DNA of 64,000 nt from IMG/VR virus record IMGVR_UViG_3300045988_082903, positions 1-64,000 of that record; one strand, 5' to 3'. Below, in pieces: positions 35,730-63,064 of the stretch (position 1 is the first letter of the stretch; every line of letters starts with the position of its first letter). Source of the stretch: a virus. Position numbers and translations under genes: made by a program. The notes beneath the pieces are model-generated. The model did no database searches. It was given only the letters and a program-made list of their open reading frames with translations, and was not told where the DNA came from.

Positions 35730-36446
35730 TCAAGCAATCATTTTAGTTGCTTCACTTTGAACAAATTCTTTAATTTGCTGATATCCCCATCCGCAATTAA
35801 TAAGGCTGCTTACAAGCATTTCCATATTTTGTACTTTTGCTAAGTCATCACCTGTGAAGAAATCTCTAAGATTTTCTTTTGCTTTTACCCCATAATCACT
35901 TTCAAGCTCTTTGGCTGTTTTTCCGAATAAATTACGATAAATTAAATTTGTGTAATTTGGATAAGCAAATCTTTTATTTTGGCTTTCCGTTATTTTCATC
36001 TTAATTGTATCTGTTAGGATATGTCGAATAACAACACCCTTGTCACGCTCGATTTGCCATTGCTGACGTTCTGTATGAATTCTTTTTAATTCAGATTCCA
36101 TTTTATTAAAAGCGTCAATGTATTTAAGTTTCCACTGTAATGCTTTTTCACCATTAAATCCCATGGCTAACAAGGAAAATCCATCTCTTGTTATAAGGTA
36201 TTCGGTATACTCACGATTGTTTTCTCCGATATAAGAAGTTTTTATAAAATAATCAGAAAGGGGGATATCTCCCCTTTGAGAAATCTGTGTTACAAGACCT
36301 AAATGTTTGGTTTTACCCTCTGCGTCAACTTGTCCTTCAATTGCCCTTATTACTTCCTTGTGCTCTTTTTCGAAAGATTCTGCGATTTTTCTTGACGTAG
36401 TAAGTAACTTTTCTTCGTATCTTTTTCCAACGATTTCTACCAGCAT
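35730..36446 (-). CDS. Rha-family phage regulatory protein
   Basis: LTTSRKIAESFEKEHKEVIRAIE...YLITRDGFSLLAMGFNGEKALQWKLKYIDAFN. Confidence 0.75.
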   Translation of the reverse strand: MLVEIVGKRYEEKLLTTSRKIAESFEKEHKEVIRAIEGQVDAEGKTKHLGLVTQISQRGDIPLSDYFIKTSYIGENNREYTEYLITRDGFSLLAMGFNGEKALQWKLKYIDAFNKMESELKRIHTERQQWQIERDKGVVIRHILTDTIKMKITESQNKRFAYPNYTNLIYRNLFGKTAKELESDYGVKAKENLRDFFTGDDLAKVQNMEMLVSSLINCGWGYQQIKEFVQSEATKMIA

Positions 36447-36480: not shown

Positions 36481-36514
36481 AACAAAAAAGCGCCTACCCC
36501 GAAAGGTAAACGCT
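36481..36514 (-). terminator. Promoter-proximal intrinsic terminator (late cassette a)
   Basis: Minus strand AGCGTTTACC tttcgg GGTAGGCGCT then TTTTTTGTT. Confidence 0.7.
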
Positions 36515-36540
36515 TTAAAAATTGCTTATTATGATTTTAT

Positions 36541-36586
36541 AGTATAACATACGGCGAAAGTATCATTCAGTATACTTTGGTATCAT
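36541..36586 (-). promoter_or_regulatory. Late-promoter-like cassette a: 27-bp conserved box + extended -10
   Basis: Minus strand ATGATACCAAAGTATACTGAATGATAC - 8 nt - TATGTTATACT. Confidence 0.6.
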
Positions 36587-36704
36587 TTCACTGTTTTTAA
36601 AACTTCCTCTAAGTACAGATATTCGAGCAACTTATATGTTCTTTTGAGATCATAATAATCATCTACTTTTTCCAAAAGTTTCTTGATTTCTTCTTTATAG
36701 TCAA

Positions 36705-37001
36705 TCATTCTACAATTCCTCCCAACACTCTAATCAACTTCTGTTTGCGGTTATACTTCAAAATCTCGGAAATCTGCCCCATCATATCATCCATTGTCAT
36801 GTTGCTCTTCATGCTGTTGCATCGCTTACACGCCAGTTGCAGATTCTTAATATCATTGGTGCCGCCCCGGGACAACGGCGTAATGTGGTCGATTGTCATT
36901 TTCTTGAATTTGACAGGCTTACCGCATATCGCACATTTTCCGTTGCACTTGGCGTACACGCTCTTTTTCTGAAAGTCATTGAACTGGATTCTATTTGCCA
37001 T
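36705..37001 (-). CDS. HNH endonuclease
   Basis: CAICGK...DHITPLSRGG.N...NLQLACKRCNSMK. Confidence 0.85.
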   Translation of the reverse strand: MANRIQFNDFQKKSVYAKCNGKCAICGKPVKFKKMTIDHITPLSRGGTNDIKNLQLACKRCNSMKSNMTMDDMMGQISEILKYNRKQKLIRVLGGIVE

Positions 37002-38485: not shown

Positions 38486-38962
38486 ATGCTAGTAAGAAAT
38501 AAAAAACAAGTGCAAAAATCTTTTAGAATTGACGAAGATGTTGAAAGAGATTTAGGGCTACTGTCACAGATCACAGGAAGAAGCCAAAATGAATTGGCGA
38601 ATGTTGCGCTTGAAGAACTGCTGCAAGATAACAGTATTCATTTTCTAAATATTGCAATATTGGAGCATTATGAAAGTGAAGTTGAAAATGCGGATGAAAT
38701 AGCACCTTTTATATTGGGAGGACTAGAAGTTCAGTTTGCCCCTGTTGACGGAACAAGTGAAATTGAAATTACAAGCATTGTTAGGGACGGAGAAAAAGAA
38801 CTTGATAGGTATACAAAGAGAATAGATGAATGCAACGGTAATGAACTTGAAAATTATCTTATGTCTTTAAGTATGTATATAGATGTAAAGGCAGAAGATA
38901 CTGTACAGTATTTGAAAGATAGAACGGATTATAGAGATTATGTAAAAGTAAGAAACAAATAA
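38486..38962 (+). CDS. RHH-N-terminal domain protein
   Basis: KSFRIDEDVERDLGLLSQITGRSQNELANVALEELL then an unknown domain; SD AAAGGAGAG. Confidence 0.55.
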   Translation: MLVRNKKQVQKSFRIDEDVERDLGLLSQITGRSQNELANVALEELLQDNSIHFLNIAILEHYESEVENADEIAPFILGGLEVQFAPVDGTSEIEITSIVRDGEKELDRYTKRIDECNGNELENYLMSLSMYIDVKAEDTVQYLKDRTDYRDYVKVRNK

Positions 38963-39101
38963 AAATAAGAGATTCCGTACCAACCAAAGTTAAGAATCTC
39001 TTAAATGATTCTGCCACCAAATAGGAGGCTATACAAATTATAACACTGTATGCCTCCTGTTTGCAAATGAAAATTAAAATTTCACAGGAGGATTTTTATA
39101 T

Positions 39102-39905
39102 ATGAATGAATTACAAAAAGTAGAATGTAATGGAATTATTGTTCTTACAACACAGCAGATTGCAGAAGCGTATGGAACTGATACCAAAATTGTTTCATAC
39201 AACTTCAATCATAACAAAGATAGATATGAAGAAGGAAAGCATTTTATTTGTTTAACCGGGAATGAACTTCGGGCGTTTCGTGAAAATCACGATTTGCCAA
39301 ATAACTTAAATAAAATCTATCTCTGGACAGAAAAAGGGGCTTTCCTTCACGCTAAATCTCTGAACACCGATAAAGCGTGGGAAGTATATGACGCACTTGT
39401 GGATAATTATTTCGAGAAGAAAAAAGAAGAAATTAATGTAAATCAGCTGTCCCCCGAACTGCAAATGTTCAATCAGATTTTCCAACAGGTAGCCAAGACT
39501 GAACTGGAACAGAAGAAACTTGCGGAACGTGCCGACCAACAAGAGGAAAACATGAAAACCATTATTGATACCTTTAAAGGAACGGATTCTGATGTTGGCA
39601 CAGAGAAATGGGTAAACAGATGTATTTCAAAGATTGCCGAGAGTGATGATTTCTCTTACTCATTCGGAAATAAATATGCCGCCGCCAGAAACGAAAGCTA
39701 CCGCAGATTATCAGACAGAGCTGGTTGCCGATTAGATCAGAAACTTAGAAATGCAATTTCCAGAGCTGAGGAAAGAGGTTGCACAAAAGAACTGATTAAC
39801 CAAATTAATAAACTTTCCGTGATTATGCAAGATAAGCGACTGAAAGAAATTTACATTGGCGTGATTAAAGAAATGATGATTGCATACAGAGTAGAAATTG
39901 CATGA
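39102..39905 (+). CDS. ORF6N/ORF6C-type antirepressor-like protein
   Basis: Paralogue of 24895..25716 (N-domain GIIVLTTQQIAEAYG...; C-terminal DRAGCRLDQKLRN..ERGCTK). Confidence 0.7.
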   Translation: MNELQKVECNGIIVLTTQQIAEAYGTDTKIVSYNFNHNKDRYEEGKHFICLTGNELRAFRENHDLPNNLNKIYLWTEKGAFLHAKSLNTDKAWEVYDALVDNYFEKKKEEINVNQLSPELQMFNQIFQQVAKTELEQKKLAERADQQEENMKTIIDTFKGTDSDVGTEKWVNRCISKIAESDDFSYSFGNKYAAARNESYRRLSDRAGCRLDQKLRNAISRAEERGCTKELINQINKLSVIMQDKRLKEIYIGVIKEMMIAYRVEIA

Positions 39906-42785: not shown

Positions 42786-44003
42786 TTAAGGTCTAAAATC
42801 ATGCTTTTTTCTTTCCTCGCTTTCATATTCTGCACATTTTTCGGCGCAAATAGTCCCTCCACAGGAAAACATAGCTTCTGGCATTTGCACTTTTTCATCA
42901 TATTCTTTGCCTAATTTAAGCATTGAAAACATATTACCATAGTCTTCTCTAGTAACACAATTTGACCAATATTTATTTGACGCATAATGATTTAAAAGTC
43001 TTAATCCTTGTTCGGTAGTTAAAACTGGGTGAGGTTCATTGTATGTTTGATAGTATTCCCTGTAATATTCTCTTAGCAATTCTGTGAAACCATTAAGGTA
43101 CGGAATTAAGCTAACTCTATTTTGCGGCGAATATCTTTCAGAAAAGAAATATCCATTATTTTCTAAATCAAGCCCATATTTAATATTTTTTATGCTCTTT
43201 TCGCCGTCAATATCTAGTATTCCTACAAAACATTTATCCATCATATAGTTTTGTGCAAATTTATCCTTATCAAATTTAACGCTTGGATATTTGACAAATA
43301 TCTTCAAATACCGTTTATTTTTCTTTTCCTCCGCAAAATCTTCTTCTGTGATTAAATATGTTTCAACATAATATTTTAAAAGTTTCGGATTAAACTCTAT
43401 TCCTCGTGATGTTAAAACTTTCTTGATATAATTGAAATAATAATTTGACTTATTATCCCCCTTTGAGTGATTAATACACACTCCTGGTATTTTTGAAAAT
43501 GCCATTACAATTTCATCGTATGAAAATTCTTTACAATATGATTTTACGGATTTTTCCATTGCGTCCATAATTTTATCTGCTGAAAATCTTTTCAACCAGA
43601 TTCCTATTTCTTTGCGTCCGTTATCGTTTACATCACACCCTGTCAATTGTTCAAAATATTCGGTTAGCATGTTTACTGCCATATTATCATAATCGAGTAG
43701 CTCTTTCTTCCATTCAGCAATCATTTCCAACTGTTCTTTTTTCTCTGCAAGATCTTTTAATGCTTCCTGTTGTAATGATATTGCTTTGGAATCTGAAATT
43801 CTAGTTTTGCCTTTTCCTCTATTACAATCGCGACACGAAGTAATTAAATTTGTAATCTCATCATCTCCGCCCTCTGCTACTGGCTCAATATGGTCTACTT
43901 CCAAAATTACGTCTGGTGACATTCGTCCACAATATTGACATGTGAATTTGTCTCTTTTGAATACTTCAAATCTGATTTTCTTGCTAAGTGGTTTTCTTGC
44001 CAT
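42786..44003 (-). CDS. HNH endonuclease fused to a roughly 300-aa unknown domain
   Basis: N-terminus CQYCGR...DHIEPVAEGG.D...NLITSCRDCNRGK; the C-part has a weak DnaD-like feel (WLKRFSADKIMDAMEKSV..YYFNYIKKVL), unverified. Confidence 0.7.
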   Translation of the reverse strand: MARKPLSKKIRFEVFKRDKFTCQYCGRMSPDVILEVDHIEPVAEGGDDEITNLITSCRDCNRGKGKTRISDSKAISLQQEALKDLAEKKEQLEMIAEWKKELLDYDNMAVNMLTEYFEQLTGCDVNDNGRKEIGIWLKRFSADKIMDAMEKSVKSYCKEFSYDEIVMAFSKIPGVCINHSKGDNKSNYYFNYIKKVLTSRGIEFNPKLLKYYVETYLITEEDFAEEKKNKRYLKIFVKYPSVKFDKDKFAQNYMMDKCFVGILDIDGEKSIKNIKYGLDLENNGYFFSERYSPQNRVSLIPYLNGFTELLREYYREYYQTYNEPHPVLTTEQGLRLLNHYASNKYWSNCVTREDYGNMFSMLKLGKEYDEKVQMPEAMFSCGGTICAEKCAEYESEERKKHDFRP

Positions 44004-44129
44004 AGATTAATACCTGCCTTTCGTATAAAAGAGTGCCTTGAACTGTATGTAAATCAACAGGCAGGCGGCAAGGCATTTCCGCTTTTCGATGATCGGTCTA
44101 GCCTGTTGGTTTTACCAAAATTAACGGTT

Positions 44130-44240: not shown

Positions 44241-44269
44241 ATTATACCACACAATCAGTCAAAAATCAA
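44241..44269 (-). promoter_or_regulatory. Promoter-like element overlapping the tape-measure stop
   Basis: TTGATT - 17 nt - TGgTATAAT on the minus strand. Confidence 0.4.
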
Positions 44270-47200
44270 TATGCCGGGGACGGATTGAAACGGCTGTCAC
44301 GGTTTTCTTTCGCTTTTGTAACAATTTTTGCGAACTCGTCCCCATCAATTGAAATGCTGTTCATGATGTACTGCGGATTCTTATTTCCATTGTTTGTACT
44401 CATTGCCATTGCAACTCCCTGTGCTACTGCTTTTGCCATTTCTTCTTTTGTAAGTCCCATGCTTCCGTCCGAACTGGAAACAATGCTGTCTGCAATCTTC
44501 TTCATGGTTCGTGGATTTTCCAGCGGAAGAACTGCTTCGGAACCGGCTTCACCGATACCGATTACCTGTGCACCATTGAAAAGACCACCTTTCGCGTACC
44601 AATTAGGCTTGTAAACTGGTGTAGAACTGGTTCTTCCACCGCCAAGATCATGTTTTCTCCACTCTGAAATATAATAAGTCAGAGTTGGTAAATGCACTTG
44701 TTTCATGCCGTCAGCGAATGATTGAGCAGTTTCCCGACCAATTGATGTAAGATTAACATTAAATAGCCTTTTAATTTTATCCGAAATCCCAGACAAATTA
44801 GATTCTGTGTAGGTTTTCATTTTTCCGGTTTCCGTGTCAACTTTACCAGAAGCCTTTTCCAAAATCTGGTTTGTATTAATCAGAACGGAAGACCAATAGC
44901 TTTGAATAGTTGTCATAACCTTACCCATTACATCTTTTGTATCGGTGTCCATGGTTCCGAGAGCTGTTGATACTGCATTTGCGGAATTTCCCCAGTTTGT
45001 TTTAGAGTTGGTTTCAACATCATCATTTGTGTTCTTTATCTTCGACCAAATGGAAGGCATTGTGCTTTCTGTGCTTTTTTTCATCCCAGCCATTGCAGTG
45101 CTTACGGCGGTATTGGCGAGACCAAAGCCAGTTTTTGTCTTGGATGATACGGAGCTAGAAGCATTTGCAACAGCGGTAGTAATACCTCCCACTGCTGTTT
45201 TCACAGATGTATTCATTCCATCGAAAGAATTCTTTGCACTTGTTTCCATTGTGACAACTGCATCTGGAAAATCTTTTCTGAGTTTTTCATCTAATTCATC
45301 TAACGGAACGCCAGCATTTTTTAATGACGTATAAACTGCGTCTAGTGCTTCTTCTGTATTAGCATATGTTCTTCCAGATATTGCACTATCAAGAGCATCT
45401 TTAGCAGTTAAGTAGTCTCCACTAAATTGATCAGAGCTAAGACTTAAAAGATAAAGTTCGTCTTTCAAATCAGATATACTGATTTTGGTTGTATCAAATT
45501 TTCCTGCTGATTCAGATACACCATCTCCAAGGGCTACAGCTTTGTCATTCATATCTTCCAAAAATCCAGTTGATATGCCCGCCTGTGCGCCGTATTTTTC
45601 GAGAATTTTTCTTGCATCTTCGGTTGATACGCCGAATTCTCCAAGTTTCTGAATGAAACTATCGTACATTTCAGAATTTGATTTTCCGGCACTTTCATCT
45701 GCTTCAATTAACTTCCAAAGCTCTTCTGCTTGATCTTGCGTTATTTTATGCGCGCTTTCCATCTCGCCTGCATAATCATGGAGATAACCACCTGTTTGTG
45801 TGAGAATACCATTTCCACCTTGCGCAGCTTCTGTAATACTTGCAATTCCTTTAGCAAGTTTAACAGATAATGCCGTTGCAACAAATACAATCCCAGCGGT
45901 TCCAAATATAGCACCAAGTGTTGAAGAAAACGTTTTAAGTCCGCCTGTTGAAGCTGTTTCCGCTGCATCTCCAACTCCCTTTATTGCTTCACTTGCCGCA
46001 CTTGTACCATTTCCTATCACATCCGCAAGTTTATCTGCAATTAGTTCTGCATTTTTCTTTTCAGCTATTTTGCCTGCAATATGTCCCACAAGTGAACCAA
46101 CAAGAGTTCCAATACCTGTAATATTTGCTATTTTTACTGCAATAAACGCTTTTGTAAGCCATTCTGCAATATGTCCGGCTATCGGGTGTTTTTCCTCTAA
46201 TCCATCAAACAATCCGTTTAATGCGCTGGTAAGACCAGTCAATAACAAATCAGCCGCAGTACTAAGTATTTCACCCCATGGTAATTCGCCAAGGAATGTT
46301 CCAACACCTTGTCCAAATTCATAGAAAGTGTCTTTTGTAAGCGTATTTTTCAACGCCGTACACAGGTGAGATATGAAATCTCCAAGTGCTTGTCCATTTT
46401 CTTTCCAGTTTGTATCTTTGATGAACTTAGCGATTCCATCTCTGATTTTCGTTGCTAGATCATCCCAATTAAATGTTTCGGTAAATGACTTTAAGCTTTC
46501 AAATGCTCCATTCAGTAAGCCGGAAAGTGCATCTGCAATGGTGTTCATGTCTATCTTTTCGATTGCACCATTTAAGGCATTTCCAAGTGCAGTGCCAAGT
46601 TTACCCCATCCAGTAATTCCAGCACCATCCTTTTTAGACATATCCTTTACAAAGCCAGAAAGCATTTTCCAAGATGCCATAAAACTATTTCCGATTAAGT
46701 TTCCAAGACCTGTCCAGTCAATTTCCTTTATAGCGCCTTTTAAAAGTTGAGACAGTTTTGCCCCTATTCCAGAAAAATCTATTCCTCCCTCTCCGAGCAA
46801 CAGGTTTAGGGTATTTACTGCCGTGTTGATTCCAGCCCCAAGCAATCTTCCCATTAAGTCAAAATCTATACCTCTAACCATGGAATTGAATGCCGTGGTA
46901 AATGCATTTACAAATTCGGTTATTTTCGGGCCAACATTATTCCAATTAATAACTTCATATATTTTTTGCATTCCGACATTTATCATGTCTGCAATAGTAA
47001 AGCCTAGTCCCTGCCAGTCTTTATTGATAAATGCCTTTCTAATTTTAGCAGCCCATTTATTAATTGGTGTTTCATCAACAGTCAAAACTTCATCAAGTGA
47101 ATCTTGTATTCCAGCAAAACTATCTGCCAAATCTCCAAGCCCAGAACCAAGACTTTTAGATGCAGTTCCAGAATTATCAGAATTATCGGCAAGCTGATTT

Positions 47201-49005
47201 AATTGGTCAAATGGCAATACAGAAAGTGCCTTTTTCAGTTTCTTTGCAGATGATGTAGCGTCATCAAGCCCGGAGGAGGCATCGTCACCAGCTGTTTCTA
47301 TACCGCCTAAGTTAGATACAATATCACTAACTCCACTCTGTGAGCCTTTTAGTTTCTTACCCATCAATACATACATGAAGTTGCGAAATGCATTTGCGGC
47401 TTGCATAAGCTTTGACATGAGCGCATTAAGTGCTTGAATAGCCGGGAGAATTCCAGCGATTAAACCTTGCCCGATTACTGCAGAAAGTGACTGGAAATTC
47501 AGAGTGAGTAAACGAACCTGGTTCGCCCAGGTGCCAGATGTCCTTGCGAAATCCCCTTGCACATCTCCTGTAACTGACATTAAATAGTTATATCGAAGAG
47601 CAACTTTTTCAGCTTGAGACATTGCATTATAAGATGTTGTAATTCCCCTTGAAAGAGCATAAGCCTCCATATTTGCAACGGATAAATTAATACCCAATTG
47701 TCTTAAAGGCTCAATTTCCCCGGAAATTCCAGCGCGTATTTTCTGAAAAGCAGTATCGGTATCAATGTTGTAAAATGATGCAATATCCCCGGCTAATCCA
47801 GCAAGAGAAATTGACATTTTAGAAGCTGCATCTTGCGCAACACCAGATGATTTCATCATTGCCATCATGGTTCCAGAATATTGCTTTGCTGCCAATTCGG
47901 ATAATCCAAATTGTTCTTTAGCCGTAGAAGCAAATTTGTAGGCTTCATCTGCCATGCTTCCAAAGGAAACATCTACAACATTTTCGATTTCTGTAATAGC
48001 AGAGCCAAAACCAATTGCACTTTTTCCTAAATTTGCCAGACCACGAATAGCCTTAAAACCGATAGCAGTTTTAAGCAAATTTCCGAGATTAAAAGAAGCG
48101 GTTTTAATTCCAGAACTACTATTCCCGAGACGTTGAAACCATCCAATAATGCCTTTTACCCCGGTTCCAATTATAGAAGAAGTTTTACTAACAATATTAC
48201 CAAGGCTAGATGTTGCAGATGATAATTTAGAAAACGCACTGGATATAGAATTTGTAGCGGAATTTACCTTTCCCCCTGCATTAGCCAACTTTGCCAGTGC
48301 TTCCGTCATGCGGATTGTGTTATCACTGATTTTTGGTGCGGTTTTCATTACATCAAAGAAAGATAATACTTCCTTTGCTAGTGTTCCAAGCTGGCTTGAC
48401 GTTTGTCCGATTTTATTTCCAGAGCTTGCCAATTGTGCAATAGACTGAACTAACCTATTTACAGGTTCAGATATATCGCCAACGCTCGTAAAACTCTCTA
48501 CGATTGATTTAAGATTTCTTCCAAGCCCAGGCAATTCAGCCGATACATTTGCAATATATTCACCGGAATTGGCTAGTCTAGCCATTGAATTGACAAAACG
48601 ATTAACACTGGTAGATACATCTGGTATTTCCGATAAACCTGATAATTTAGTGATTATTTCTCCGAGTTTTCCTGTGTCAAAACTACTTATATCAACCTGG
48701 CTAAGCCTGTTGATTGAGTTGATAACTGCATTCAGTCCAGAACCTTTATAATCTACTCCGCCCATTGTCTTTATGGAATTTGAGAATTTTCCAATTCCAT
48801 CAGCAATGCTTGTCATTTTCCCTATATCAAGTTCTTTTAGTTTTCCAAGTTCCCTTACACAACCACGTAATCCGTTTGTATTAACTCCGCTTAATGCGGA
48901 ATTAACTTCTGTGAGTTTATTTGAAAGATTAGTCAGCGCACGTACTGCTTTTTCTGTACTACTGCTAATTTGTATATCAAGGGTATCAATGGTATTTTCA
49001 GCCAT
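44266..49005 (-). CDS. Tail tape measure protein
   Basis: 1579 aa, Ala/Gly/Ser-rich and helical, follows the chaperone pair; ATG 49005 after GGAGGG. Confidence 0.9.
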   Translation of the reverse strand: MAENTIDTLDIQISSSTEKAVRALTNLSNKLTEVNSALSGVNTNGLRGCVRELGKLKELDIGKMTSIADGIGKFSNSIKTMGGVDYKGSGLNAVINSINRLSQVDISSFDTGKLGEIITKLSGLSEIPDVSTSVNRFVNSMARLANSGEYIANVSAELPGLGRNLKSIVESFTSVGDISEPVNRLVQSIAQLASSGNKIGQTSSQLGTLAKEVLSFFDVMKTAPKISDNTIRMTEALAKLANAGGKVNSATNSISSAFSKLSSATSSLGNIVSKTSSIIGTGVKGIIGWFQRLGNSSSGIKTASFNLGNLLKTAIGFKAIRGLANLGKSAIGFGSAITEIENVVDVSFGSMADEAYKFASTAKEQFGLSELAAKQYSGTMMAMMKSSGVAQDAASKMSISLAGLAGDIASFYNIDTDTAFQKIRAGISGEIEPLRQLGINLSVANMEAYALSRGITTSYNAMSQAEKVALRYNYLMSVTGDVQGDFARTSGTWANQVRLLTLNFQSLSAVIGQGLIAGILPAIQALNALMSKLMQAANAFRNFMYVLMGKKLKGSQSGVSDIVSNLGGIETAGDDASSGLDDATSSAKKLKKALSVLPFDQLNQLADNSDNSGTASKSLGSGLGDLADSFAGIQDSLDEVLTVDETPINKWAAKIRKAFINKDWQGLGFTIADMINVGMQKIYEVINWNNVGPKITEFVNAFTTAFNSMVRGIDFDLMGRLLGAGINTAVNTLNLLLGEGGIDFSGIGAKLSQLLKGAIKEIDWTGLGNLIGNSFMASWKMLSGFVKDMSKKDGAGITGWGKLGTALGNALNGAIEKIDMNTIADALSGLLNGAFESLKSFTETFNWDDLATKIRDGIAKFIKDTNWKENGQALGDFISHLCTALKNTLTKDTFYEFGQGVGTFLGELPWGEILSTAADLLLTGLTSALNGLFDGLEEKHPIAGHIAEWLTKAFIAVKIANITGIGTLVGSLVGHIAGKIAEKKNAELIADKLADVIGNGTSAASEAIKGVGDAAETASTGGLKTFSSTLGAIFGTAGIVFVATALSVKLAKGIASITEAAQGGNGILTQTGGYLHDYAGEMESAHKITQDQAEELWKLIEADESAGKSNSEMYDSFIQKLGEFGVSTEDARKILEKYGAQAGISTGFLEDMNDKAVALGDGVSESAGKFDTTKISISDLKDELYLLSLSSDQFSGDYLTAKDALDSAISGRTYANTEEALDAVYTSLKNAGVPLDELDEKLRKDFPDAVVTMETSAKNSFDGMNTSVKTAVGGITTAVANASSSVSSKTKTGFGLANTAVSTAMAGMKKSTESTMPSIWSKIKNTNDDVETNSKTNWGNSANAVSTALGTMDTDTKDVMGKVMTTIQSYWSSVLINTNQILEKASGKVDTETGKMKTYTESNLSGISDKIKRLFNVNLTSIGRETAQSFADGMKQVHLPTLTYYISEWRKHDLGGGRTSSTPVYKPNWYAKGGLFNGAQVIGIGEAGSEAVLPLENPRTMKKIADSIVSSSDGSMGLTKEEMAKAVAQGVAMAMSTNNGNKNPQYIMNSISIDGDEFAKIVTKAKENRDSRFNPSPAY

Positions 49006-49053
49006 TTTATTTATCCCTCCTTTTTTTACAAAAAAATAAAGGGCAGACAAGAC

Positions 49054-50776: not shown

Positions 50777-51181
50777 CTAATCTAATAAAGTTCCTGTATA
50801 TATCCGGCTGTATCGGCTCACAAGCTTTTTGATTCCACTGTCACCAAAAAACATAGGCTCCGGGCCATATGTGCGGCGGAATCCCATGCTCACCATAACT
50901 TTATGACTTATCTTGTCCAATTCATACACTCTGGTTAATGCTTTGCTCCCAGATGTGAAGCAATTTACTTGAAACGATGGCATTGTTGCACATTCATCCC
51001 CTTCAAGGTCACCTCTTGCAATTGGATTTCCGAGCATATAAAGCTGTGCATATGCTTTTTTACCGGAAGCATTTGTCTCGCTACCATCCATGGAATAATT
51101 GTCTGCGCCAGTAATCTTAGAAACAGCCGCTCCCCACCTTGAAAAAACTTCCAATACAGGGGCTTCTATTGTGTCTGGCAT
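50777..51181 (-). CDS. Tail completion/terminator-like protein (position-based)
   Basis: ATG 51181 after GAGGTGA; first gene after late cassette b. Confidence 0.45.
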   Translation of the reverse strand: MPDTIEAPVLEVFSRWGAAVSKITGADNYSMDGSETNASGKKAYAQLYMLGNPIARGDLEGDECATMPSFQVNCFTSGSKALTRVYELDKISHKVMVSMGFRRTYGPEPMFFGDSGIKKLVSRYSRIYTGTLLD

Positions 51182-51194
51182 ATTCGTCACCTCA

Positions 51195-51230
51195 CAATAA
51201 AAAATGCACTCACCTTTATAGTGAATGCAT
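51195..51230 (-). terminator. Promoter-proximal intrinsic terminator (late cassette b)
   Basis: Minus strand ATGCATTCAC tataaag GTGAGTGCAT then TTTTTTATTG. Confidence 0.7.
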
Positions 51231-51259
51231 TGCATTTTATGCTACAATTTAACACTGTA

Positions 51260-51305
51260 ATCATAACATAATTGGTTGGTATCATTCAGTATACTTTGGT
51301 ATCAT
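51260..51305 (-). promoter_or_regulatory. Late-promoter-like cassette b
   Basis: Minus strand ATGATACCAAAGTATACTGAATGATAC - 8 nt - TATGTTATGAT. Confidence 0.6.
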
Positions 51306-51307
51306 CT

Positions 51308-51823
51308 TCAAGAAGAGAACACCTCTTTGGCGATTTTGCGGATATTCTGAATGATTTCTACGCTTGCCTTATACATTGGCATTGTAGCTTCTGTACCGTA
51401 AGAACGTACCCATTCGCCAGAATCAGATACATATACCCAGGAATCGTTTTTTCCTTTTCCTTGTCCGTAAGAACCGATTATATAACCAAATTCTTCTCCT
51501 TTTGGATGCGGACTAGAACCGGCTGCACCATTGTAGTGAATACCTGCACCGAATTCTATAAACAAAAGGTCTATTCCTTCACATATTAAATGAGCTTCTG
51601 CATAGTCCCCAAAACTGTTGATTTTGATATAAGTATTATGGTTCTTATCAGAATCGCCTTGTGCTGCCAAAATATTTTGGTCAATGACCGGAATCCCTAA
51701 TTCACATAATCTTTTTATGAAGATTTCATTTTTATTCCTTAAAGATTTTTGATAATTTTTTATTTCATCAATAGCTTTTTGGATTGATTTCTGTGATAAG
51801 GTACACTTTATTGTCTTACCCAT
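51308..51823 (-). CDS. Head-tail joining/tail component (position-based)
   Basis: ATG 51823 after GAGAGGAAA. Confidence 0.4.
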   Translation of the reverse strand: MGKTIKCTLSQKSIQKAIDEIKNYQKSLRNKNEIFIKRLCELGIPVIDQNILAAQGDSDKNHNTYIKINSFGDYAEAHLICEGIDLLFIEFGAGIHYNGAAGSSPHPKGEEFGYIIGSYGQGKGKNDSWVYVSDSGEWVRSYGTEATMPMYKASVEIIQNIRKIAKEVFSS

Positions 51824-52208
51824 CTTCGTTTCCTCTCTTAGAAATTCCGTATCTGGCAATATTGCCTTTTTGTGTGTCTAAAATCTTCTTTAGTGTGTAG
51901 TCTGGTAATACTGTTGGCTCTCCATTTTCATCCAAAATAAGGTTTCCATCCTCGCTTATTTGTGGGATTCTATCTATCCAAAATATGTCCGCTTCCTGTG
52001 GATGAAAATTTCGATTAAAGCTTGTAATATACCTGTCGTAATCTGGCACTATTCCGGCTGCAATTTCTTCCGTCGTTCCAGCAGTGGATGATACGGAAAA
52101 AGAGTATAAAACTGGTTTCTCATAAACTTTAATACGGTCTAATCCTTGTGTTTTCTCAGATATTCGTGACCAATATACCTTTTGCTTTTGACGGACTAAT
52201 CCTCTCAT
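51816..52208 (-). CDS. Head closure/adaptor-like protein (position-based)
   Basis: 130-aa ORF. Confidence 0.4.
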   Translation of the reverse strand: MRGLVRQKQKVYWSRISEKTQGLDRIKVYEKPVLYSFSVSSTAGTTEEIAAGIVPDYDRYITSFNRNFHPQEADIFWIDRIPQISEDGNLILDENGEPTVLPDYTLKKILDTQKGNIARYGISKRGNEDG

Positions 52209-55281: not shown

Positions 55282-55766
55282 CTCTGATTACCTCCCTTCT
55301 GTGTCTTGGGCGGTTCAGATTGTATTGGCAATAATTCTTTAATTTCGGAAATCTCTGCGTGAACATCATCACGAAGTTGGTTAATCAGCGAAACAATATC
55401 AACTTGATTTGTCTTATTGCTTTCTGGTTGTTCTCCTTCATTTACAAGTCTATAAGTGAAAATTCGGCTTCTGCCATCTGCCTGTAACTGTTTTCGGTAA
55501 ACTTCTGTACCGTCAGTTTTTGGATAATAGACAGGGTTTCCAGACATATCTACGTCTTTTGCCTTTACGGTATCAATACCATCAACCATCTGTCCTTGCA
55601 ACATGGGGATTTGTGGTACTTGTGGCATTTGTTGTATTGGTTGCTGAATCTGTGCCTGTCCGTATGGCATTGCCTGCTGATAACTATTCTGCAATTGTGC
55701 TAATCTATCTTGATACGGCTGTATTTGTTGAAATGGTTGCGCAAAATACGGATTACCATACTGCAT
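55278..55766 (-). CDS. Protein with Q/P-rich low-complexity N-terminus
   Basis: QPFQQIQPYQDRLAQLQNSYQQAMPYGQAQIQQPIQQMPQVPQIP then a globular part. Confidence 0.55.
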   Translation of the reverse strand: MQYGNPYFAQPFQQIQPYQDRLAQLQNSYQQAMPYGQAQIQQPIQQMPQVPQIPMLQGQMVDGIDTVKAKDVDMSGNPVYYPKTDGTEVYRKQLQADGRSRIFTYRLVNEGEQPESNKTNQVDIVSLINQLRDDVHAEISEIKELLPIQSEPPKTQKGGNQR

Positions 55767-55824
55767 ATCTCAAACCTCCCTTGTTTTTATAACTATATTT
55801 TACAATAATAAGAGGTTGATTAAC

Positions 55825-55853
55825 ACGCCACGATAACGCCATAAATACGCCAC
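55825..55853. repeat. Three ACGCCA(C/T) direct repeats at exact 11-bp spacing
   Basis: Starts at 55825, 55836 and 55847, upstream of 55278..55766. Confidence 0.85.
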
Positions 55854-55856
55854 GTT

Positions 55857-56096
55857 TTATGAATACAAAGAAAAGCCCCGACAATACATCGGGGCGACTT
55901 TCATAATTTTCTTCTTTAATTTTCTGTTTATGCGGTCTACGGTTCTTGTGCTGTAGCCCATGATTTCTGAAGCTTCTGCAAGTGTTTTTTCTTCGTAAAC
56001 ACGCAATCGGAATAACTCTTTTTCTCTGGAATCAAATCCAGCTTCACGCAAATAGAAGATTCTTTCATCTTCCGAAAAGTCTTTATAATTATCCAT
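55857..56096 (-). CDS. Small sigma-70 region-4-like HTH protein
   Basis: ATG 56096 seven nt after GGGAGGA; REKELFRLRVYEEKTLAEASEIMGYSTRTVDRINRKLKKK. Confidence 0.6.
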   Translation of the reverse strand: MDNYKDFSEDERIFYLREAGFDSREKELFRLRVYEEKTLAEASEIMGYSTRTVDRINRKLKKKIMKVAPMYCRGFSLYS

Positions 56097-57075: not shown

Positions 57076-58113
57076 TTATTCCCCCGCCTTGGTACCGATA
57101 ACGATACCGCCGTTAGCTTTTGGTGCAACAGGAACAAACATACCAGACGCTTTTGTCCATACTGCAACTGGGTCTGGTGTAGCCCACATGGAAAGAGTTA
57201 CGAAAGAACGGTTCTCTTCCTGGATGAACTGTCTGTATTCCGTTTCCTCTGGAGTTACGCCCCAGAGACCAACACCGAAGGATCCGTCGGCATCTGCTTC
57301 ATACAGAGTAAATACATCCTCTTTGAAGAATCTGGCTGTTTTCATAGTTCCATCTGCTTTTCTAAAATTGAATTTCTCATCACAACGATCAATTGTGATT
57401 TCATATTCCTGCATAAGCAGATTTGCAAGTTCCTGCTTTGTGAGAAGTCTCTTATTTGCAGCACCCAGAACAGCTGTCTGCATTGCAGTATTGTTCCGCA
57501 TATAGTTGATCATTTTAAGAGAAGTTACAGCCTTGTTTACTACATAGCCATTGCCTTCTGCTACAGCTACCATTTTTTGGATATCGCCCATGATATCTGA
57601 ATCTGGCTTAGACCAATCGGTAAGCGTTACTTTTGCACTTGCTGGAACTCCATAGTCAATTCCCATATCAACATGGTTCTCTTTGATTGTTACGGCACCG
57701 GTAGAAAGGAACTGTCCTTTCATAGCATTTGCTCTGGCAACAACGCCATCAAACAGGCCGGCTGCATCATTAAATACAAAGTTTTTCAGTGCTTCATTAT
57801 CCGGCACGCCGTTTTCAATTGCCTGCTGCAATCTTTCAGATTGATTGATTTTCCTCTTGATAAAGAGCTTTTCGGTCAGGACTTTTTCAAATCCAGGTCT
57901 TGTACCGATTTCTGCTTCGGTATCAAGAGCATGAACAAATGCAACTTCCGGGAGATTCTGTCCAGCCATAAGTCTGTAATACTCTGCTTTCAGATACTGG
58001 GTTTTTGTATCTGGGAAAATGGTATCGAGGATACCTGGTCTTTTAACGCTGAAATTCTGAGAGAAATTAAGTCTTTCTTCTTGGGTGATTGATTCTAAAA
58101 TATTAAATGGCAT
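57076..58113 (-). CDS. Major capsid protein
   Basis: 345 aa after scaffold and decoration-like genes; resembles the capsid protein E-type family (memory-based). Confidence 0.8.
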   Translation of the reverse strand: MPFNILESITQEERLNFSQNFSVKRPGILDTIFPDTKTQYLKAEYYRLMAGQNLPEVAFVHALDTEAEIGTRPGFEKVLTEKLFIKRKINQSERLQQAIENGVPDNEALKNFVFNDAAGLFDGVVARANAMKGQFLSTGAVTIKENHVDMGIDYGVPASAKVTLTDWSKPDSDIMGDIQKMVAVAEGNGYVVNKAVTSLKMINYMRNNTAMQTAVLGAANKRLLTKQELANLLMQEYEITIDRCDEKFNFRKADGTMKTARFFKEDVFTLYEADADGSFGVGLWGVTPEETEYRQFIQEENRSFVTLSMWATPDPVAVWTKASGMFVPVAPKANGGIVIGTKAGE

Positions 58114-59139: not shown

Positions 59140-59304
59140 TGAAATCTCCTTTCTTCCAGTCCAATACGCTTTTTCAACACGGTTCGCTCCGCACATGGTC
59201 TGTACCCGATTTACGCTCACGGGCTGTTGCAATTTATTTGATTTTGGGTATTAAAAAAGAAGCCTTAGATTTCTCTAAAACTCCTTAAATAATCGAAATT
59301 TGGT

Positions 59305-60777
59305 TCATTCTTCGTTAGATGGAGAATTTGCCATTGGTTCTGTTTTGGACGGATTCTGAAATTTTTCATCCAGTAGTTGTTGAGCTTTCTTCATTTCCGC
59401 TTCCGGGTCTGCCAGTTCCGGGTAAATAGTTCCCAGATACGGTAAACTCATTTCGTAGACTTTCTGCGGATCACTAAATAGCCCACAAGTAATCAGTGCG
59501 ATAAGCGGATGGATTTTATTTTTGAACAGATAATCAAGTGCTTGTGCTTTTACAAGCATATTGTCTGTTGGGTTTCTGGTTATCTTTACATCGAAATCTC
59601 GAGTTGAGATATTAACATCATTTGATGTACCACGGATAATATTCAGAATAATTCTAGCAGATTCCTTTTCGGCTTCCTTGGTGAATGCTTCTACCAATTT
59701 TGCATCTCTCTCTGCGAAGTCCCATCCATTACGAAGGTATACGGCATTTCCTGTATCTCCTCCGCTATTGCTTTGTCGGTTTGGCATTGCTTCCACAATC
59801 AGCATATTATTGTAGATATCATCCTTTGCAACCTGGCTCTCTGATTGATTCAGTTCAGCGGTCATAAGTTCAACATCCGACTGACAGCCATTTCCAGTGT
59901 CTTTAACAGAGATAGCACCAAGTTTTACCATTTTCAAAAACTCGTTTTCGTCTACCTCGCAGTTTTTAAATTTCATAAAGGCTTGCACAAACTGTTCCAC
60001 GCCATTTAATCTATCAGACTGGTATTTGTTGATTGCATCAAATAAGGTGATTGCAATTTCAACGTCTGATAGTCTGTCGTGATTATTCGGGCATTCAACA
60101 ATAGGAATCCCGCCAAAACCATTGATGCCGTAGTTGGTTACTTTTCCATTCTTGATTTCAAAAAACTGGTTCTTTGAATAACATAAATAATATTGCTGTT
60201 CGTCTTCATCCTTTAAAATCTGAACGGACAGCATTGGTTTCCCGTTTCTCTGCGAATATACAATGTAACAATCACCTGGATATGGGATGAAAATTCTAAA
60301 CGGTGGTAAATCTCCGTTTTCTGTCCAGTCCTCTTCTTTCAGAATAGCCTTATAAGAAGTTCCTGTTGCACTCTGGTATATTGCCCTTTGGATGTTTCTT
60401 GCATCTGCATTGGCTTCATCCAAATAGTCATTCAGAAGGTCAACTTGCTCATTTATTTTTTCATCTGCATTTTTCTTTTTACATACATATTGAATTGGCT
60501 CCCCACAAATCTGTCCAGCTTTAAATTTTACAGTTTCAAACGCGTGATTTTCAACCACTCTGTTATTAACTTCTGGACGGACTATTTTGTTTCGGTATAA
60601 TATCGGCTGATCGCCTTTCATGTACCGATACAAGTAATCAATTAATGTTCGGTTTCTATTATGTATGCCAATTGTATCTGATACTACTTTTACTACATTT
60701 TGTGGAGTGATTCGGTCAACGCCTGTGTAGGCCACTTTTCGCCCGAACTCACCTCGGCATAAATCTACAAAATTCAT
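59305..60777 (-). CDS. Portal protein
   Basis: About 490 aa between the regulator/terminase and the scaffold; start ambiguous (ATG 60777, GTG 60789 or ATG 60801). Confidence 0.8.
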   Translation of the reverse strand: MNFVDLCRGEFGRKVAYTGVDRITPQNVVKVVSDTIGIHNRNRTLIDYLYRYMKGDQPILYRNKIVRPEVNNRVVENHAFETVKFKAGQICGEPIQYVCKKKNADEKINEQVDLLNDYLDEANADARNIQRAIYQSATGTSYKAILKEEDWTENGDLPPFRIFIPYPGDCYIVYSQRNGKPMLSVQILKDEDEQQYYLCYSKNQFFEIKNGKVTNYGINGFGGIPIVECPNNHDRLSDVEIAITLFDAINKYQSDRLNGVEQFVQAFMKFKNCEVDENEFLKMVKLGAISVKDTGNGCQSDVELMTAELNQSESQVAKDDIYNNMLIVEAMPNRQSNSGGDTGNAVYLRNGWDFAERDAKLVEAFTKEAEKESARIILNIIRGTSNDVNISTRDFDVKITRNPTDNMLVKAQALDYLFKNKIHPLIALITCGLFSDPQKVYEMSLPYLGTIYPELADPEAEMKKAQQLLDEKFQNPSKTEPMANSPSNEE

Positions 60778-60808
60778 TGTATTTCTCACGAGCCGAACCA
60801 TCCTTTCT

Positions 60809-60844
60809 GAAAAATAAAAAGCACTGGATATTTTAATCCAATGC
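60809..60844 (-). terminator. Promoter-proximal intrinsic terminator (late cassette c)
   Basis: Minus strand GCATTGGAT taaaat ATCCAGTGC then TTTTTATTTTT. Confidence 0.7.
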
Positions 60845-60854
60845 TCTACTTTAT

Positions 60855-60899
60855 ATTTTACACATATTGGCGGTATCATTCAGTATACTTCGGTATCAT
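60855..60899 (-). promoter_or_regulatory. Late-promoter-like cassette c
   Basis: Minus strand ATGATACCGAAGTATACTGAATGATAC - 6 nt - TATGTGTAAAAT; the box overlaps the stop codon of 60896..61318. Confidence 0.6.
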
Positions 60900-61318
60900 C
60901 TTTCAAAACCTTTTATCTTTTTTACTTCTGCCAAAGCTTTTAAGTGTTTTTTCTTAATATGTATTTCAGAATAACCCATCTCATCTGCAATGCGAACCAA
61001 AGATTTGTACTCAACATAGTGCTTAAATAATATGTCATATAGTAATGGATCTTCAACCTGTTCTATGGTTCGGACTATTTCTTGTCTTTTTTGTAAAAAT
61101 TCAGATATCATTTCTGAAATCTCTTCTCGCAGATCAAATATCTTCGCAATCATATCTCCCATCGGATCACGTTTTACAGAAGTTTGTACCTTTTCTCCAA
61201 CAGGAATTGCAGATACACTTGTGGAAAGAGAACTGAGCTGTTCTTCTTCGATAAGCTTGTTTTTGATTCTGTTATCATAATTTTCAATCTGGCGTAAATA
61301 TTGAGTTGCAGTCATCAT
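60896..61318 (-). CDS. Sigma-region-4-like late regulator candidate (DUF1492/ArpU-RinA-like)
   Basis: 140 aa; C-terminal YDILFKHYVEYKSLVRIADEMGYSEIHIKKKHLKAL HTH; N-terminal coiled region. Confidence 0.6.
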   Translation of the reverse strand: MMTATQYLRQIENYDNRIKNKLIEEEQLSSLSTSVSAIPVGEKVQTSVKRDPMGDMIAKIFDLREEISEMISEFLQKRQEIVRTIEQVEDPLLYDILFKHYVEYKSLVRIADEMGYSEIHIKKKHLKALAEVKKIKGFER

Positions 61319-61321: not shown

Positions 61322-63064
61322 CTATCTCCTTCCCCACATAAAATTTTTGGTTGCTTTTACTTCTGCAAATCTTTTTCCAGCAAGTGTTATTGCAAGCTGT
61401 GTAACTCCATCTGCGGCGTCATCATGCTCATTATCGCCAATATATACAAAGGTCGTTAATTCATCCATAGCCTTTTGATACTGCTTGTCTTGATATTTCG
61501 GAGCCAAAAATATGAAATTCTGCTTAACATCCCCGGAATACTGATTTATTTTTTCTTTTTTTGCTTGTTTTGAAGGTGCTTTTGTACTTGTCGTGCTGCA
61601 AGCGTATTTATGTTCCTTCAACCGTTCATTTACATAATAGGCATACATATCTCCACCATTATTCGCTTCAAAATTAATGGATTGAATATTATTACCCATG
61701 ATTCTTCCAACAACTAATGGCAATGTTCCTTCTTTTGGCGCTGTGCTAAAAATCCAGTCATATATATACACATCTCCATTTTCGTATTCTGCACCCACTG
61801 GCATTGATAAGCTATCGCCACCACCCCACGCAACATCGCAAGCAGAAACATTTTTAACAAATCCACCTTCTGGAAGAACGCCGTTATAATATCTCAATTC
61901 GTCAGCTGCAAACACAATTCCTTCACGTAAGAAGGGCTTTTGCTGATATTTGGCTTCCCATTCGTTAGCGTCTAACCTAGCTTTCATATCGACATAATAT
62001 TTTGTTGAAAATCCAACGCCATACTCATAATCGAAATTCGATTTACCTTCATCATTCAAAGCTGGAATTTTTCTAAACCGATACATTGGATTATCGTGAT
62101 TTAGCTTCTCGATTTTTCCGAGAGGGTCATATAAATTCCATCTAGTTCCAACCATAAGCTCCCTTGCGCCGTCAATCTTACGGTCAACCATCTTATTCAG
62201 ATATTCTTGATATGTATTTTCTAATCGGGTGGGGCTTAATGAATGTTGTCTATCTCTTACAAGGTCATCCACGTACAAATACCCATCAGAAGAAATATCA
62301 ACGGCACCCGTCCAAGTTCCTTCAATACCACGGCAAGTCATTGTTGCAAATCTGTCTGGCTTGTCCAGGTTTATTTCAAAATCATCAGCACTCTGTTTTT
62401 GAAGTTTCGACTGTGGAAAAATTTCACTGTAGTTATATTCCTGTGTATTAATGAGATTAAGAAGTTCTCCGTAAAATCCTTTTGCCAGCTTTCCAGAATG
62501 ACCACCCATGGCACTATGGCTATTCGGTCTTTTACCCATTATCCAAGACATAAAGAAAATACACATAGTAGATTTTCCAACACGGCTTGGAAGCGATAAA
62601 CCATAAAACTCTATCTTTCTTTCTTCCAAATCTTGTAGGTCTTTGGCTACCACATGTAGTGTTTTTCTTCGTGGAATATAAAATTTCTTGCTGTCTGGTC
62701 TATTTTTTTCCATATAAAGCAAGTAACTTTCAAATAAATGTGGTGCTTCTAGTAACAAATACTGCCAGTAGATATCATCAAAATCACCACTGCCAGTTAA
62801 TGCGGCACACTTCTCTGCTATGTTATGTGAGTATTGACTTACTTTCATAGCCATTTTCCGTGCTTCTTGGTTCTTGTCGAAAGGAAGGTCAATATTCATA
62901 TTTAAGAGCAAATCAAGGCAATCTTTTTGATTCTGATAGATTGTCATGTCACTACTGATAATCTGATTTAGGACCGTCCGATACCATTCAAGCGAACCTT
63001 CTGTGAATTTTTGCATAAAAAAAGCCAGACCTCCTTTCATTTTAGGATTTAGTCTGGCTCTCAT
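61322..63064 (-). CDS. Terminase large subunit
   Basis: Walker A SRVGKST, C-terminal nuclease-like part; start uncertain (63064, 63040 or 63016). Confidence 0.85.
   Translation of the reverse strand: MRARLNPKMKGGLAFFMQKFTEGSLEWYRTVLNQIISSDMTIYQNQKDCLDLLLNMNIDLPFDKNQEARKMAMKVSQYSHNIAEKCAALTGSGDFDDIYWQYLLLEAPHLFESYLLYMEKNRPDSKKFYIPRRKTLHVVAKDLQDLEERKIEFYGLSLPSRVGKSTMCIFFMSWIMGKRPNSHSAMGGHSGKLAKGFYGELLNLINTQEYNYSEIFPQSKLQKQSADDFEINLDKPDRFATMTCRGIEGTWTGAVDISSDGYLYVDDLVRDRQHSLSPTRLENTYQEYLNKMVDRKIDGARELMVGTRWNLYDPLGKIEKLNHDNPMYRFRKIPALNDEGKSNFDYEYGVGFSTKYYVDMKARLDANEWEAKYQQKPFLREGIVFAADELRYYNGVLPEGGFVKNVSACDVAWGGGDSLSMPVGAEYENGDVYIYDWIFSTAPKEGTLPLVVGRIMGNNIQSINFEANNGGDMYAYYVNERLKEHKYACSTTSTKAPSKQAKKEKINQYSGDVKQNFIFLAPKYQDKQYQKAMDELTTFVYIGDNEHDDAADGVTQLAITLAGKRFAEVKATKNFMWGRR

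Follow-up and report, generated by a model that had tools for sequence, protein, structure and literature searches.

Predicted Ltr-type late promoters, each running into a conserved leader terminator, in three dispersed copies in a human-gut phage genome

In a stretch of phage DNA of 64,000 nucleotides (nt; positions 1 to 64,000 of IMG/VR record IMGVR_UViG_3300045988_082903, hereafter the window), three late gene blocks are each preceded by the same compact arrangement on the minus strand: a 27-bp box of direct repeats, an extended −10 element, and a hairpin followed by a U tract. These three cassettes, designated c, b and a, head the blocks for portal and head proteins, for tail assembly and the tape measure, and, after an island of accessory genes, for the tail tip. 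By the family of the 140-residue protein encoded directly upstream of cassette c, by the position of the repeats at the stop codon of its gene (ltr), and by the concerted change of repeats and protein across lineages, the cassettes are, as far as sequence can tell, Ltr-type late promoters. Each leads its transcript through a terminator-like hairpin before the first gene is reached, and we somewhat favor the view that the Ltr protein activates initiation and that partial read-through of this terminator gates late expression.

The cassettes share a box of three phased direct repeats

The box reads ATGATACC(A/G)AAGTATACTGAATGATAC and is present at the three minus-strand positions given in the original prediction (Table 1). 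As had also been stated there, it lies nowhere else in the window: no further copy was found at up to three mismatches, and 100 shuffled controls gave no match. The box had been described as two ATGATAC repeats flanking a palindrome. The direct repeats stand, but the palindrome does not survive as a feature of its own. The box is composed of three direct repeats of the form A[TG][GT]ATAC in a 10-bp phase (ATGATACCAA / AGTATACTGA / ATGATAC; six overlapping matches against 0.3 expected), and the central palindrome AGTATACT is, on comparison of lineages, simply the middle repeat and incidental, because in the 70% lineage (lineages are named here by protein identity) the box reads TTGATACCTTTTGATACTGAATGATAC, with TTGATAC as its middle unit and without a palindrome. 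Box c begins at 60899 and takes up the TGA stop codon of the ltr gene (60898-60896).

Similar placements are seen in related phages. An exact-pattern scan of IMG/VR found the box in at least 113 stretches. Among the matches listed, all 110 full-length occurrences fall in three intergenic contexts, those of cassettes a (49), c (34) and b (27), and every full-length box has an extended −10 and a run of T in its downstream leader. The original prediction had named copies at non-intergenic positions in related genomes as evidence that would count against it; none were present among these matches, in which the box is limited to intergenic sites heading late blocks. There was no match in 185,579 species-representative genomes, and a loose pattern of three TGATAC units retrieved mostly unrelated viruses from IMG/VR, with about seven relevant loci. 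A promoter on the plus strand of the box was considered and rejected: copy b (51276-51305) contains TTGGTA-18-TATCAT with a TG, directed towards the upstream gene, and copy c the weaker TTTATA-18-TATCAT with no TG. The match in copy b is probably fortuitous.

Each box abuts an extended −10 element

The claimed extended −10 downstream of the box is present in all three cassettes, with a TRTG extension and 12-13 nt between box and hexamer (Table 1). In relatives, promoter c appears as TGTATAAT at identical spacing and promoter a as TGCTATAAT or TGTTATAAT, and the −10 reaches the consensus TGnTATAAT together with the Gram-positive TRTG “−16” motif. By inspection, many distant prophages likewise have 12-13 nt between the last repeat and a TGnTAnnnT −10. 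The window cassettes lack a −35 hexamer at 16-18 bp from the −10; the repeats lie at about −51 to −25 and overlap the position usually bound by sigma region 4. By comparison, the combination of box and extended −10 is a well-supported predicted promoter.

Downstream of the −10, after 0-1 nt, the window cassettes contain a further TAnnnT hexamer (TAAAGT, TAAAAT, TACAGT), which coincides in part with the predicted start and does not occupy +1 to +10. Position frequencies over 59 Ltr-family loci revealed a recurrent (G/A)TAAAYTG directly after the −10, followed by an A-rich stretch ending in G, which could be a start-site region or a pause element. One example reads TATAGT-GTAAACTG-AAAAAG; the element has instances in the window at 60848-60854 and 36534-36540 and is kept across lineages whose boxes differ.

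A terminator-like hairpin lies between each promoter and its first gene

A hairpin and U tract had been proposed ahead of the first gene of each late block, and a terminator scan and folding bear this out in all three cassettes, with stems of 9-13 pairs. The scan placed the hairpins at 60847-60818 (c), 51231-51203 (b) and 36516-36487 (a), followed by TTTTTATTTTT, TTTTTTATTG and TTTTTTGTTG, respectively, and their folds are more stable than those of shuffled sequences (z = −3.1 to −4.8). Some 10-30 nt of leader separate the −10 from the hairpin; hairpins a and b begin about 18-23 nt from the predicted start, and the hairpin with its U tract ends 38-75 nt past the predicted starts. Between the U tract and the start codon (GTG 60789, ATG 51181, ATG 36446) are only 14-34 nt, occupied by a ribosome-binding site (RBS). 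This leaves no space for another promoter, and the portal, tape-measure and tail-tip mRNAs must therefore contain the terminator.

The three hairpins differ from one another in sequence, and each has its own history. Hairpin c is kept in seven lineages; in three of its pairs both partners have changed, and the only loss is that of the loop-closing pair, in two lineages. In close relatives, hairpin b has undergone a compensatory double change from A-T to G-C, and in the 85% lineage it is replaced at the identical position by a non-homologous hairpin. Comparison across lineages thus gives good support to the leader hairpins as conserved terminator-like structures under selection. The minimum-free-energy structures of the three leaders contain the terminator hairpins only, with no alternative antiterminator fold, and no Rfam family matched at the cassettes at gathering thresholds, the only two matches (FuFi-1 and int-alpA) lying elsewhere. 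Promoter-like letters in the loops of hairpins c (TAAAAT) and b (TATAAAG) were also considered as a promoter within the hairpin and rejected, as they are not conserved in copy a or in relatives.

Strong terminator-like hairpins are also found inside the late blocks on the minus strand (52986-52959, 50779-50760, 49075-49038 and 59257-59286), directly abutting the following RBS or start codon, and no sequence resembling a promoter lies behind them. The hairpin at 49075-49038 has 16 bp and overlaps the start of the tape-measure gene. Those behind the portal gene and behind the first gene of block b have conserved positions in L285, and some positions are conserved in the 85% lineage. Overall, the late half contains more terminator-like sites than expected (29 against 14.4; 30 against 11.8), and the early half at 4-24 kb shows no such excess (14 against 12.7).

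The 140-residue protein belongs to the Ltr superfamily and changes together with the box

The protein encoded upstream of cassette c scores 23.4 bits against Pfam DUF1492 (cut-off 21.5), also matches Sigma70_r4, and is assigned to PHROG 36, “transcriptional regulator”, at 1.5e-18. Its AlphaFold2 (AF2) model, with a predicted local distance difference test (pLDDT) score of 84, displays a long N-terminal helical hairpin and a C-terminal three-helix sigma4 fold that superposes on the −35-binding region 4 of SigF, SigD, SigE and SigR at 1.2-2.8 A. Compared with BFVD, the full model finds phage DUF1492 proteins at template-modeling (TM) scores of 0.8-0.92, and an hhalign comparison with RinA gives marginal similarity (E 0.0026). 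The isoelectric point is 6.3 (23 K+R, 24 D+E), and only the C-terminal helix is lysine-rich. DUF1492 constitutes family III (LtrB) of the Ltr superfamily, alongside RinA, ArpU and LtrC (PMC3753634), and the protein is a member of this superfamily of late activators, within the DUF1492 (LtrB) family.

Membership in the Q family was considered with the Pfam profiles PF03589, PF06530 and PF06323 and rejected. The PF06530 score of 19.6 bits is below the cut-off of 26 and covers only residues 80-127, the helix-turn-helix; hhalign against Escherichia coli QuuD gives a probability of 1.1%; and no Q fold is among the Foldseek PDB matches of the model.

In published Ltr systems, the protein recognizes direct repeats that adjoin the 3′ end of its own coding sequence and turns on the late promoter at that site (PMC3753634; PMC13123087). 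Specificity is set by the C-terminal region, and the proteins are both necessary and sufficient for late transcription (PMC3753634; PMC3152322; PMC13123087). Consistent with such a role, the recognition helix of the 140-residue protein and the box change in parallel across lineages. In the window, the helix EIHIKKKH accompanies ATGATAC/AGTATAC repeats. The 85% lineage has ATGATAC/AATATAC/ATTATAC in c and AAGATAC/AATATAC/ATTATAC in b, both cassettes having changed in concert, and the 70% lineage (EVTIKRLH) has three TGATAC units in both c and b. The repeats are AGTATGC/ATCATAT/ATCATAT in the 51% lineage (IQHIRSCH), ATGTCAT in the 44% lineage and ATGTCAC/ATGTCGT/TTGTCAC in the 35% lineage; WRQVMRIH and KRHTQRLH complete the series of helices. 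Throughout these five lineages the arrangement is constant, with repeats, an interval of 12-13 nt, −10, hairpin and then U tract, and repeats at the regulator's own stop codon are present in five further lineages and many prophages. This co-variation is the strongest evidence that sequence can offer, and it supports well the prediction that the 140-residue protein reads the box. Of the two proteins that had been put forward as candidate box-binding factors, the comparison therefore favors this one; the other, encoded at 55857-56096, does not vary in step with the box and is associated with repeats of another kind.

Promoter and terminator occur in the same order in distant relatives

The order of ltr stop codon, repeats, −10, hairpin with U tract, and RBS extends well beyond close relatives. 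It is found in seven of eight annotated phages with regulators of 27-39% identity, from hosts such as Ruminococcus, Oscillospirales, C. innocuum and Erysipelothrix; the exception is the Streptococcus phage Javan191, whose 17-bp hairpin, in the corresponding position, is not followed by a U tract. Among 61 distant Clostridia loci from prophages and metagenome-assembled genomes, 46 show the order, compared with 16% of same-strand background windows, and in 30 of these the hairpin lies within 110 nt after a TGnTAnnnT motif. About a quarter of the loci are without a leader hairpin; in L250, for example, a promoter with three TGATAC units runs straight into terS. The nearest prophage homologs (42% identity) come from Lachnospira, Eubacterium, Roseburia and other Clostridia, and in the distant homologs (27-39% identity) the regulator gene follows a helicase gene and precedes HNH or terS.

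A comparable arrangement can be traced between rinA and terS of the Staphylococcus aureus phage 80alpha (L281; 16169-16410 of that record), where the rinA stop codon is followed by TGGCAGT repeats, a −10-like region (TTGATA-18-GATAGT / TATTATGAT) and a terminator. About 60 nt separate the −10-like region from this 10-bp hairpin with T6, and about 40 nt more lead to terS. The RinA-dependent 5′ end mapped in the literature, 23 nt ahead of the terS ATG (PMC3152322), falls just after this terminator.

A terminator that blocks upstream transcription could just as well precede the box, as it does in the 55857-56096 unit of the same phage (see below), and the inverted promoter-then-terminator order at the ATGATAC cassettes therefore looks selected.

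In many relatives an HNH endonuclease gene lies behind the Ltr promoter, and the intervening hairpin combines a conserved base with co-variation in its interior (GCCYnnnGG ... CCnnnRGGGC), with TTTTnTTATGCC and an RBS downstream. This hairpin was found in L286, L288, L290, L291, L293, L310, L324, L349, L354 and others, representing phages of Ruminococcus, Erysipelothrix and C. innocuum as well as many Clostridia prophages.

Comparison with known late-control systems

The features of the cassettes can be compared with those of the Ltr systems described in the literature (Quiles-Puchalt 2013; Ferrer 2011; phi13 Ltr 2026). Like RinA of phi11 and 80alpha, ArpU, LtrB and LtrC, the regulator is a small protein with a sigma4-like C-terminal helix-turn-helix, here above the Pfam DUF1492 threshold. 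The direct repeats are specific to the C-terminal helix and reside at or inside the regulator's own stop codon, the −10 is of the sigma-A type, packaging and morphogenesis genes are controlled, and in 80alpha the repeats, −10-like sequence and terminator also follow one another. Several features set the phage apart: the operator-promoter is dispersed in three copies, whereas the staphylococcal phages are described with a single late promoter; the regulator gene is located between terL and portal rather than before terS; the protein is not basic overall; and the repeats are strictly 10-bp phased and extend to about −25, 12-13 bp from the −10. In published systems the repeats are at −107 to −42 (phi13; PMC13123087) or more than 155 bp upstream (RinA; PMC3152322).

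Outside the Ltr family, the closest layouts are those in which an activator site lies next to the polymerase site. The Alt activator of lactococcal phage TP901-1 recognizes several direct repeats that span −76 to −32 (cited in PMC13123087 and PMC3152322). The likeness is one of layout, in that the operator abuts the polymerase site, and TP901-1 has a single promoter as opposed to three. To our knowledge, no leader terminator has been reported for the TP901-1 late promoter. In the middle promoters of T4, which are served by MotA and AsiA in “sigma appropriation”, a MotA box substitutes for the −35, about 12 bp ahead of a −10 that is very good and often extended. The cassettes resemble them in having an activator box in place of the −35 at a similar distance from an extended −10, but the proteins are unrelated, T4 has a single box instead of three phased repeats, and no AsiA-like co-factor was identified in this phage.

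The PR′-qut-tR′ region of lambda, which responds to Q, shares with the cassettes a regulator gene directly upstream, a regulator DNA site within the promoter (a prediction in the present case), a terminator shortly after the start site, and late genes behind further terminators. It differs in that lambda has one such promoter and the window three, and the regulator here has neither Q-family homology nor a Q fold. In addition, the promoters have no −35 and look activator-dependent, and they contain no clearly placed sigma-dependent pause element.

Relative to published systems, then, the novel elements are a tight operator of three 10-bp-phased repeats abutting an extended −10, the presence of this operator in three dispersed copies in one genome, the location of the regulator gene between terL and portal, and a leader terminator that is a widespread, conserved part of the promoter class and not just the terminator of the ltr gene. 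Late control in phages of Gram-positive bacteria has been credited to Ltr activators that work at a single promoter ahead of terS. The present phage group, which is very common in the human gut (in addition to the box-bearing stretches, a separate search found 190 IMG/VR stretches encoding the regulator, whose protein cluster has 708 member sequences), presents the system in a clean form and raises the question of whether an Ltr protein only recruits polymerase or also carries it through terminators.

How late transcription may pass the leader terminator

The original prediction had offered two readings of the arrangement, the PR′-tR′ layout under Q control or a box-binding activator combined with read-through. 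The second is the better supported; the specific lambda Q reading was not demonstrated, the protein being of the Ltr/DUF1492 and not of the Q family. We lean, by a modest degree, towards Ltr-dependent activation of initiation, with partial read-through of the leader terminator as a gate. Upstream transcription would yield the 140-residue protein together with the large terminase. By analogy with published work on the family, the protein would bind the repeats and activate the promoter, and we infer that it does so as an oligomer, probably formed through the N-terminal helical hairpin, which occupies the three 10-bp-phased repeats at about −51 to −25. In this position it would stand in for the missing −35 contact and recruit host sigma-A RNA polymerase to the TRTG-extended −10, and the three operator copies would switch on the head, tail/tape-measure and tail-tip blocks. 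The leader terminator would halt polymerases arriving from upstream genes, keeping basal expression low, and late mRNA would come from those promoter-initiated polymerases that read through, whose share may increase under heavy firing.

In favor of activation are the DUF1492 membership and sigma4 fold of the protein, the overlap of box c with the ltr stop codon, and the placement of the cassettes ahead of the portal, tape-measure and tail-tip blocks. In addition, a phi13 P23 reporter that reaches only to +50 still needs Ltr and the −10 (PMC13123087). Other observations weigh against activation with simple read-through. The start sites and the terminator efficiencies are predictions. The terminators look efficient, with stems of 9-13 bp and 6-11 U, and passive leakage therefore seems wasteful. 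Moreover, the promoter-then-terminator order holds for the three window cassettes, for each lineage examined and for 46 of 61 distant prophage loci, against 16% of background windows, even though a terminator could precede the box. Finally, published Ltr proteins are basic, unlike this one.

A tentative alternative, to which we give appreciably less weight, is that the box-bound Ltr protein, or the complex that assembles at the promoter, renders the initiating or early elongating polymerase terminator-resistant, following the logic of lambda Q through an unrelated protein. The promoters would fire with or without help, and polymerase would stop at the leader terminator, releasing RNAs of 35-75 nt, unless modified by Ltr; modified polymerase would pass both the leader terminator and those internal to the late blocks. 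This would fit the order of promoter and terminator in the window, in lineages down to 35%, in seven of eight phage records and in 46 of 61 prophages; the fact that every late mRNA crosses the hairpin, with only 14-34 nt and an RBS past the U tract; and the maintenance of the hairpin through compensatory changes and, once, through a non-homologous replacement. It would likewise fit the strong promoterless terminators inside the late region (52986-52959, 50779-50760, 49075-49038), the enrichment of terminator-like sites in the late half and not at 4-24 kb, the same order in 80alpha, and the regulator gene directly upstream of the promoter, as with Q. RinA depends on sequences lying over 155 bp upstream of the mapped 5′ end, and its mechanism has been called “more complex” than direct contact (PMC3152322). 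Set against antitermination are the lack of Q homology (PF06530 and QuuD comparisons, fold), published Ltr work that favors activation of initiation, as with the P23 reporter, and the quarter of family members, such as L250, that have no leader terminator. The −10-like hexamer behind the −10 overlaps the predicted start, unlike the lambda pause element, and a search of the available literature on RinA, antitermination and terS gave nothing relevant.

It is conceivable, though less likely than not, that Ltr-family regulators are not simple activators but are loaded at the promoter and confer terminator resistance, as functional analogs of Q built on a different fold. If so, the conserved leader terminator would be the actual switch, and it would become clear why RinA binds far upstream of the terminator while the apparent late 5′ end falls just past it.

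It is improbable that the hairpin acts mainly at the RNA level, as a 5′ stabilizer, a processing signal or a source of small RNAs, with termination incidental. Such a role might be read from the start of hairpin c at about +1 to +4 of the predicted transcript, from the Javan191 hairpin that has no U tract, and from the conserved-base hairpin (GCCY...RGGGC) that recurs before HNH genes. However, the U-rich tract behind the hairpin in all three window cassettes and most relatives is a signature of termination, hairpins a and b begin too far from the predicted start for a 5′-terminal stabilizer, the three leaders have no common sequence that would suggest a shared small RNA, and the cassettes matched no Rfam family.

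It is more improbable still that the box is bound by a host factor or by the other small sigma4-like protein of the late region (55857-56096, 79 residues) instead of the 140-residue protein. The Sigma70_r4 match of this second protein (29 bits) is clearer than that of the first, but its helix-turn-helix is nearly invariant (79-95% overall identity) in lineages with completely different boxes. Furthermore, its gene is followed by its own TGGCG(T/A) repeats, which have an 11-12 bp phase and are unique in the window, and it was rejected as the binder of the 27-mer for want of co-variation and for these repeats. In the 85%, 70% and 51% lineages, TGGCGW/TGACGT repeats and the helix-turn-helix are conserved together. 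From its sequence, this unit looks like a second Ltr-type regulator and promoter pair, with the conventional order of terminator and then promoter (Table 1).

Least likely of these, a repeated mobile or recombinogenic module without a regulatory role, such as a boundary for the exchange of gene blocks, might account for the divergence of relatives exactly past the U tract of cassette a and for the homing endonuclease genes nearby, but the copies share only the 27-bp box and differ in spacers, leaders and hairpins, all lie on the same strand with the same geometry to the −10 and the next gene, and within a single genome the boxes have altered together as the regulator changed.

The cassette may also be of use as a compact, orthogonal part for Firmicutes, combining operator, promoter and insulator and available in natural specificity variants.

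Genome setting

The window covers most of a human-gut phage genome of about 82 kb, with about 37% G+C and nearly all transcription on the minus strand. Between terL and portal, in the window and in close lineages, is the ltr gene. After portal come a homolog of a minor head protein (MuF-like in relative L194) and a 345-residue protein (57076-58113) whose L194 counterpart matches the Phage_cap_E major-capsid family; the second sigma4-like gene, more late genes and cassette b follow. Downstream of cassette b are four small genes and the tape-measure gene (44266-49050), and an island separates these from cassette a; it encodes HNH endonucleases and an Ig-domain protein and also includes an antirepressor-like gene and two genes on the plus strand.

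Table 1. Coordinates of the cassette elements and of associated genes and RNAs in the window
Feature	Coordinates	Strand	Description
Box c	60873..60899	minus	ATGATAC / AGTATAC / ATGATAC; predicted Ltr operator, about −51 to −25
Extended −10 of promoter c	60855..60866	minus	TATGTG-TAAAAT; hexamer 60860-60855, 12 nt from box; predicted start near 60848
Terminator c	60810..60847	minus	hairpin GCATTGGAT/ATCCAGTGC + UUUUUAUUUUU; begins about +1 to +4 of predicted transcript
Box b	51279..51305	minus	2 nt past stop codon of open reading frame 51308-51859
Extended −10 of promoter b	51260..51270	minus	TATGT-TATGAT; hexamer 51265-51260, 13 nt from box
Terminator b	51196..51231	minus	11-12 bp hairpin + U tract; ATG 51181 14 nt on
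Box a	36560..36586	minus	first repeat contains TGA stop of a 41-residue open reading frame (36583-36708)
Extended −10 of promoter a	36541..36550	minus	ATGT-TATACT; hexamer TATACT 36546-36541, 13 nt from box
Terminator a	36481..36516	minus	13-bp hairpin + UUUUUUGUUG
terL	61322-63064	minus	upstream neighbor of the 140-residue regulator gene
ltr	60896..61318	minus	140-residue DUF1492 / sigma-region-4-like late regulator; TGA stop within first repeat of box c
Portal gene (SPP1 gp6-like)	59305..60789	minus	first behind cassette c; GTG start 60789; RBS 20 nt past U tract
Second regulator unit	55766-56096	minus	hairpin 55895-55875 in gene 3′ end; TGGCGT x3 (55825-55853); TATTAT/TAAAAT; RBS; ATG 55766
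First gene behind cassette b	50777..51181	minus	ATG 51181; heads block running into tape-measure gene
Rha-family gene	35730..36446	minus	first behind cassette a; ATG start 36446
DUF6711 (PF20458) gene	35321-35686	minus	next after Rha-family gene
Gene of 1289-residue tail protein	31448-35317	minus	next after DUF6711 gene
FuFi-1 RNA (Rfam)	25938-26125	plus	138 bits, above gathering score
int-alpA RNA (Rfam)	44036-44108	minus	45 bits, above gathering score

Downstream of cassette a (36444-36490), relatives diverge exactly at the end of the U tract, continuing either with GTTGCCAAAAAATAAATCATAAAGGAG and then the Rha gene or with CGTGTGTAAAAATACATGAGGG, which marks a mosaic junction. In one variant of cassette a the spacer (CAACCACC) is that of cassette b.

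The tail module, between the tape-measure and tail-tip genes, is interrupted by three HNH/homing-endonuclease genes, two antirepressor-like genes (Bro-N/ORF6C and Rha) and a two-gene plus-strand island (29167-30177, 36705-37001, 42786-44003, 35730-36446, 37225-37911, 38486-39905). The int-alpA RNA lies just upstream of one of these, the 405-residue HNH-domain gene at 42786-44003.

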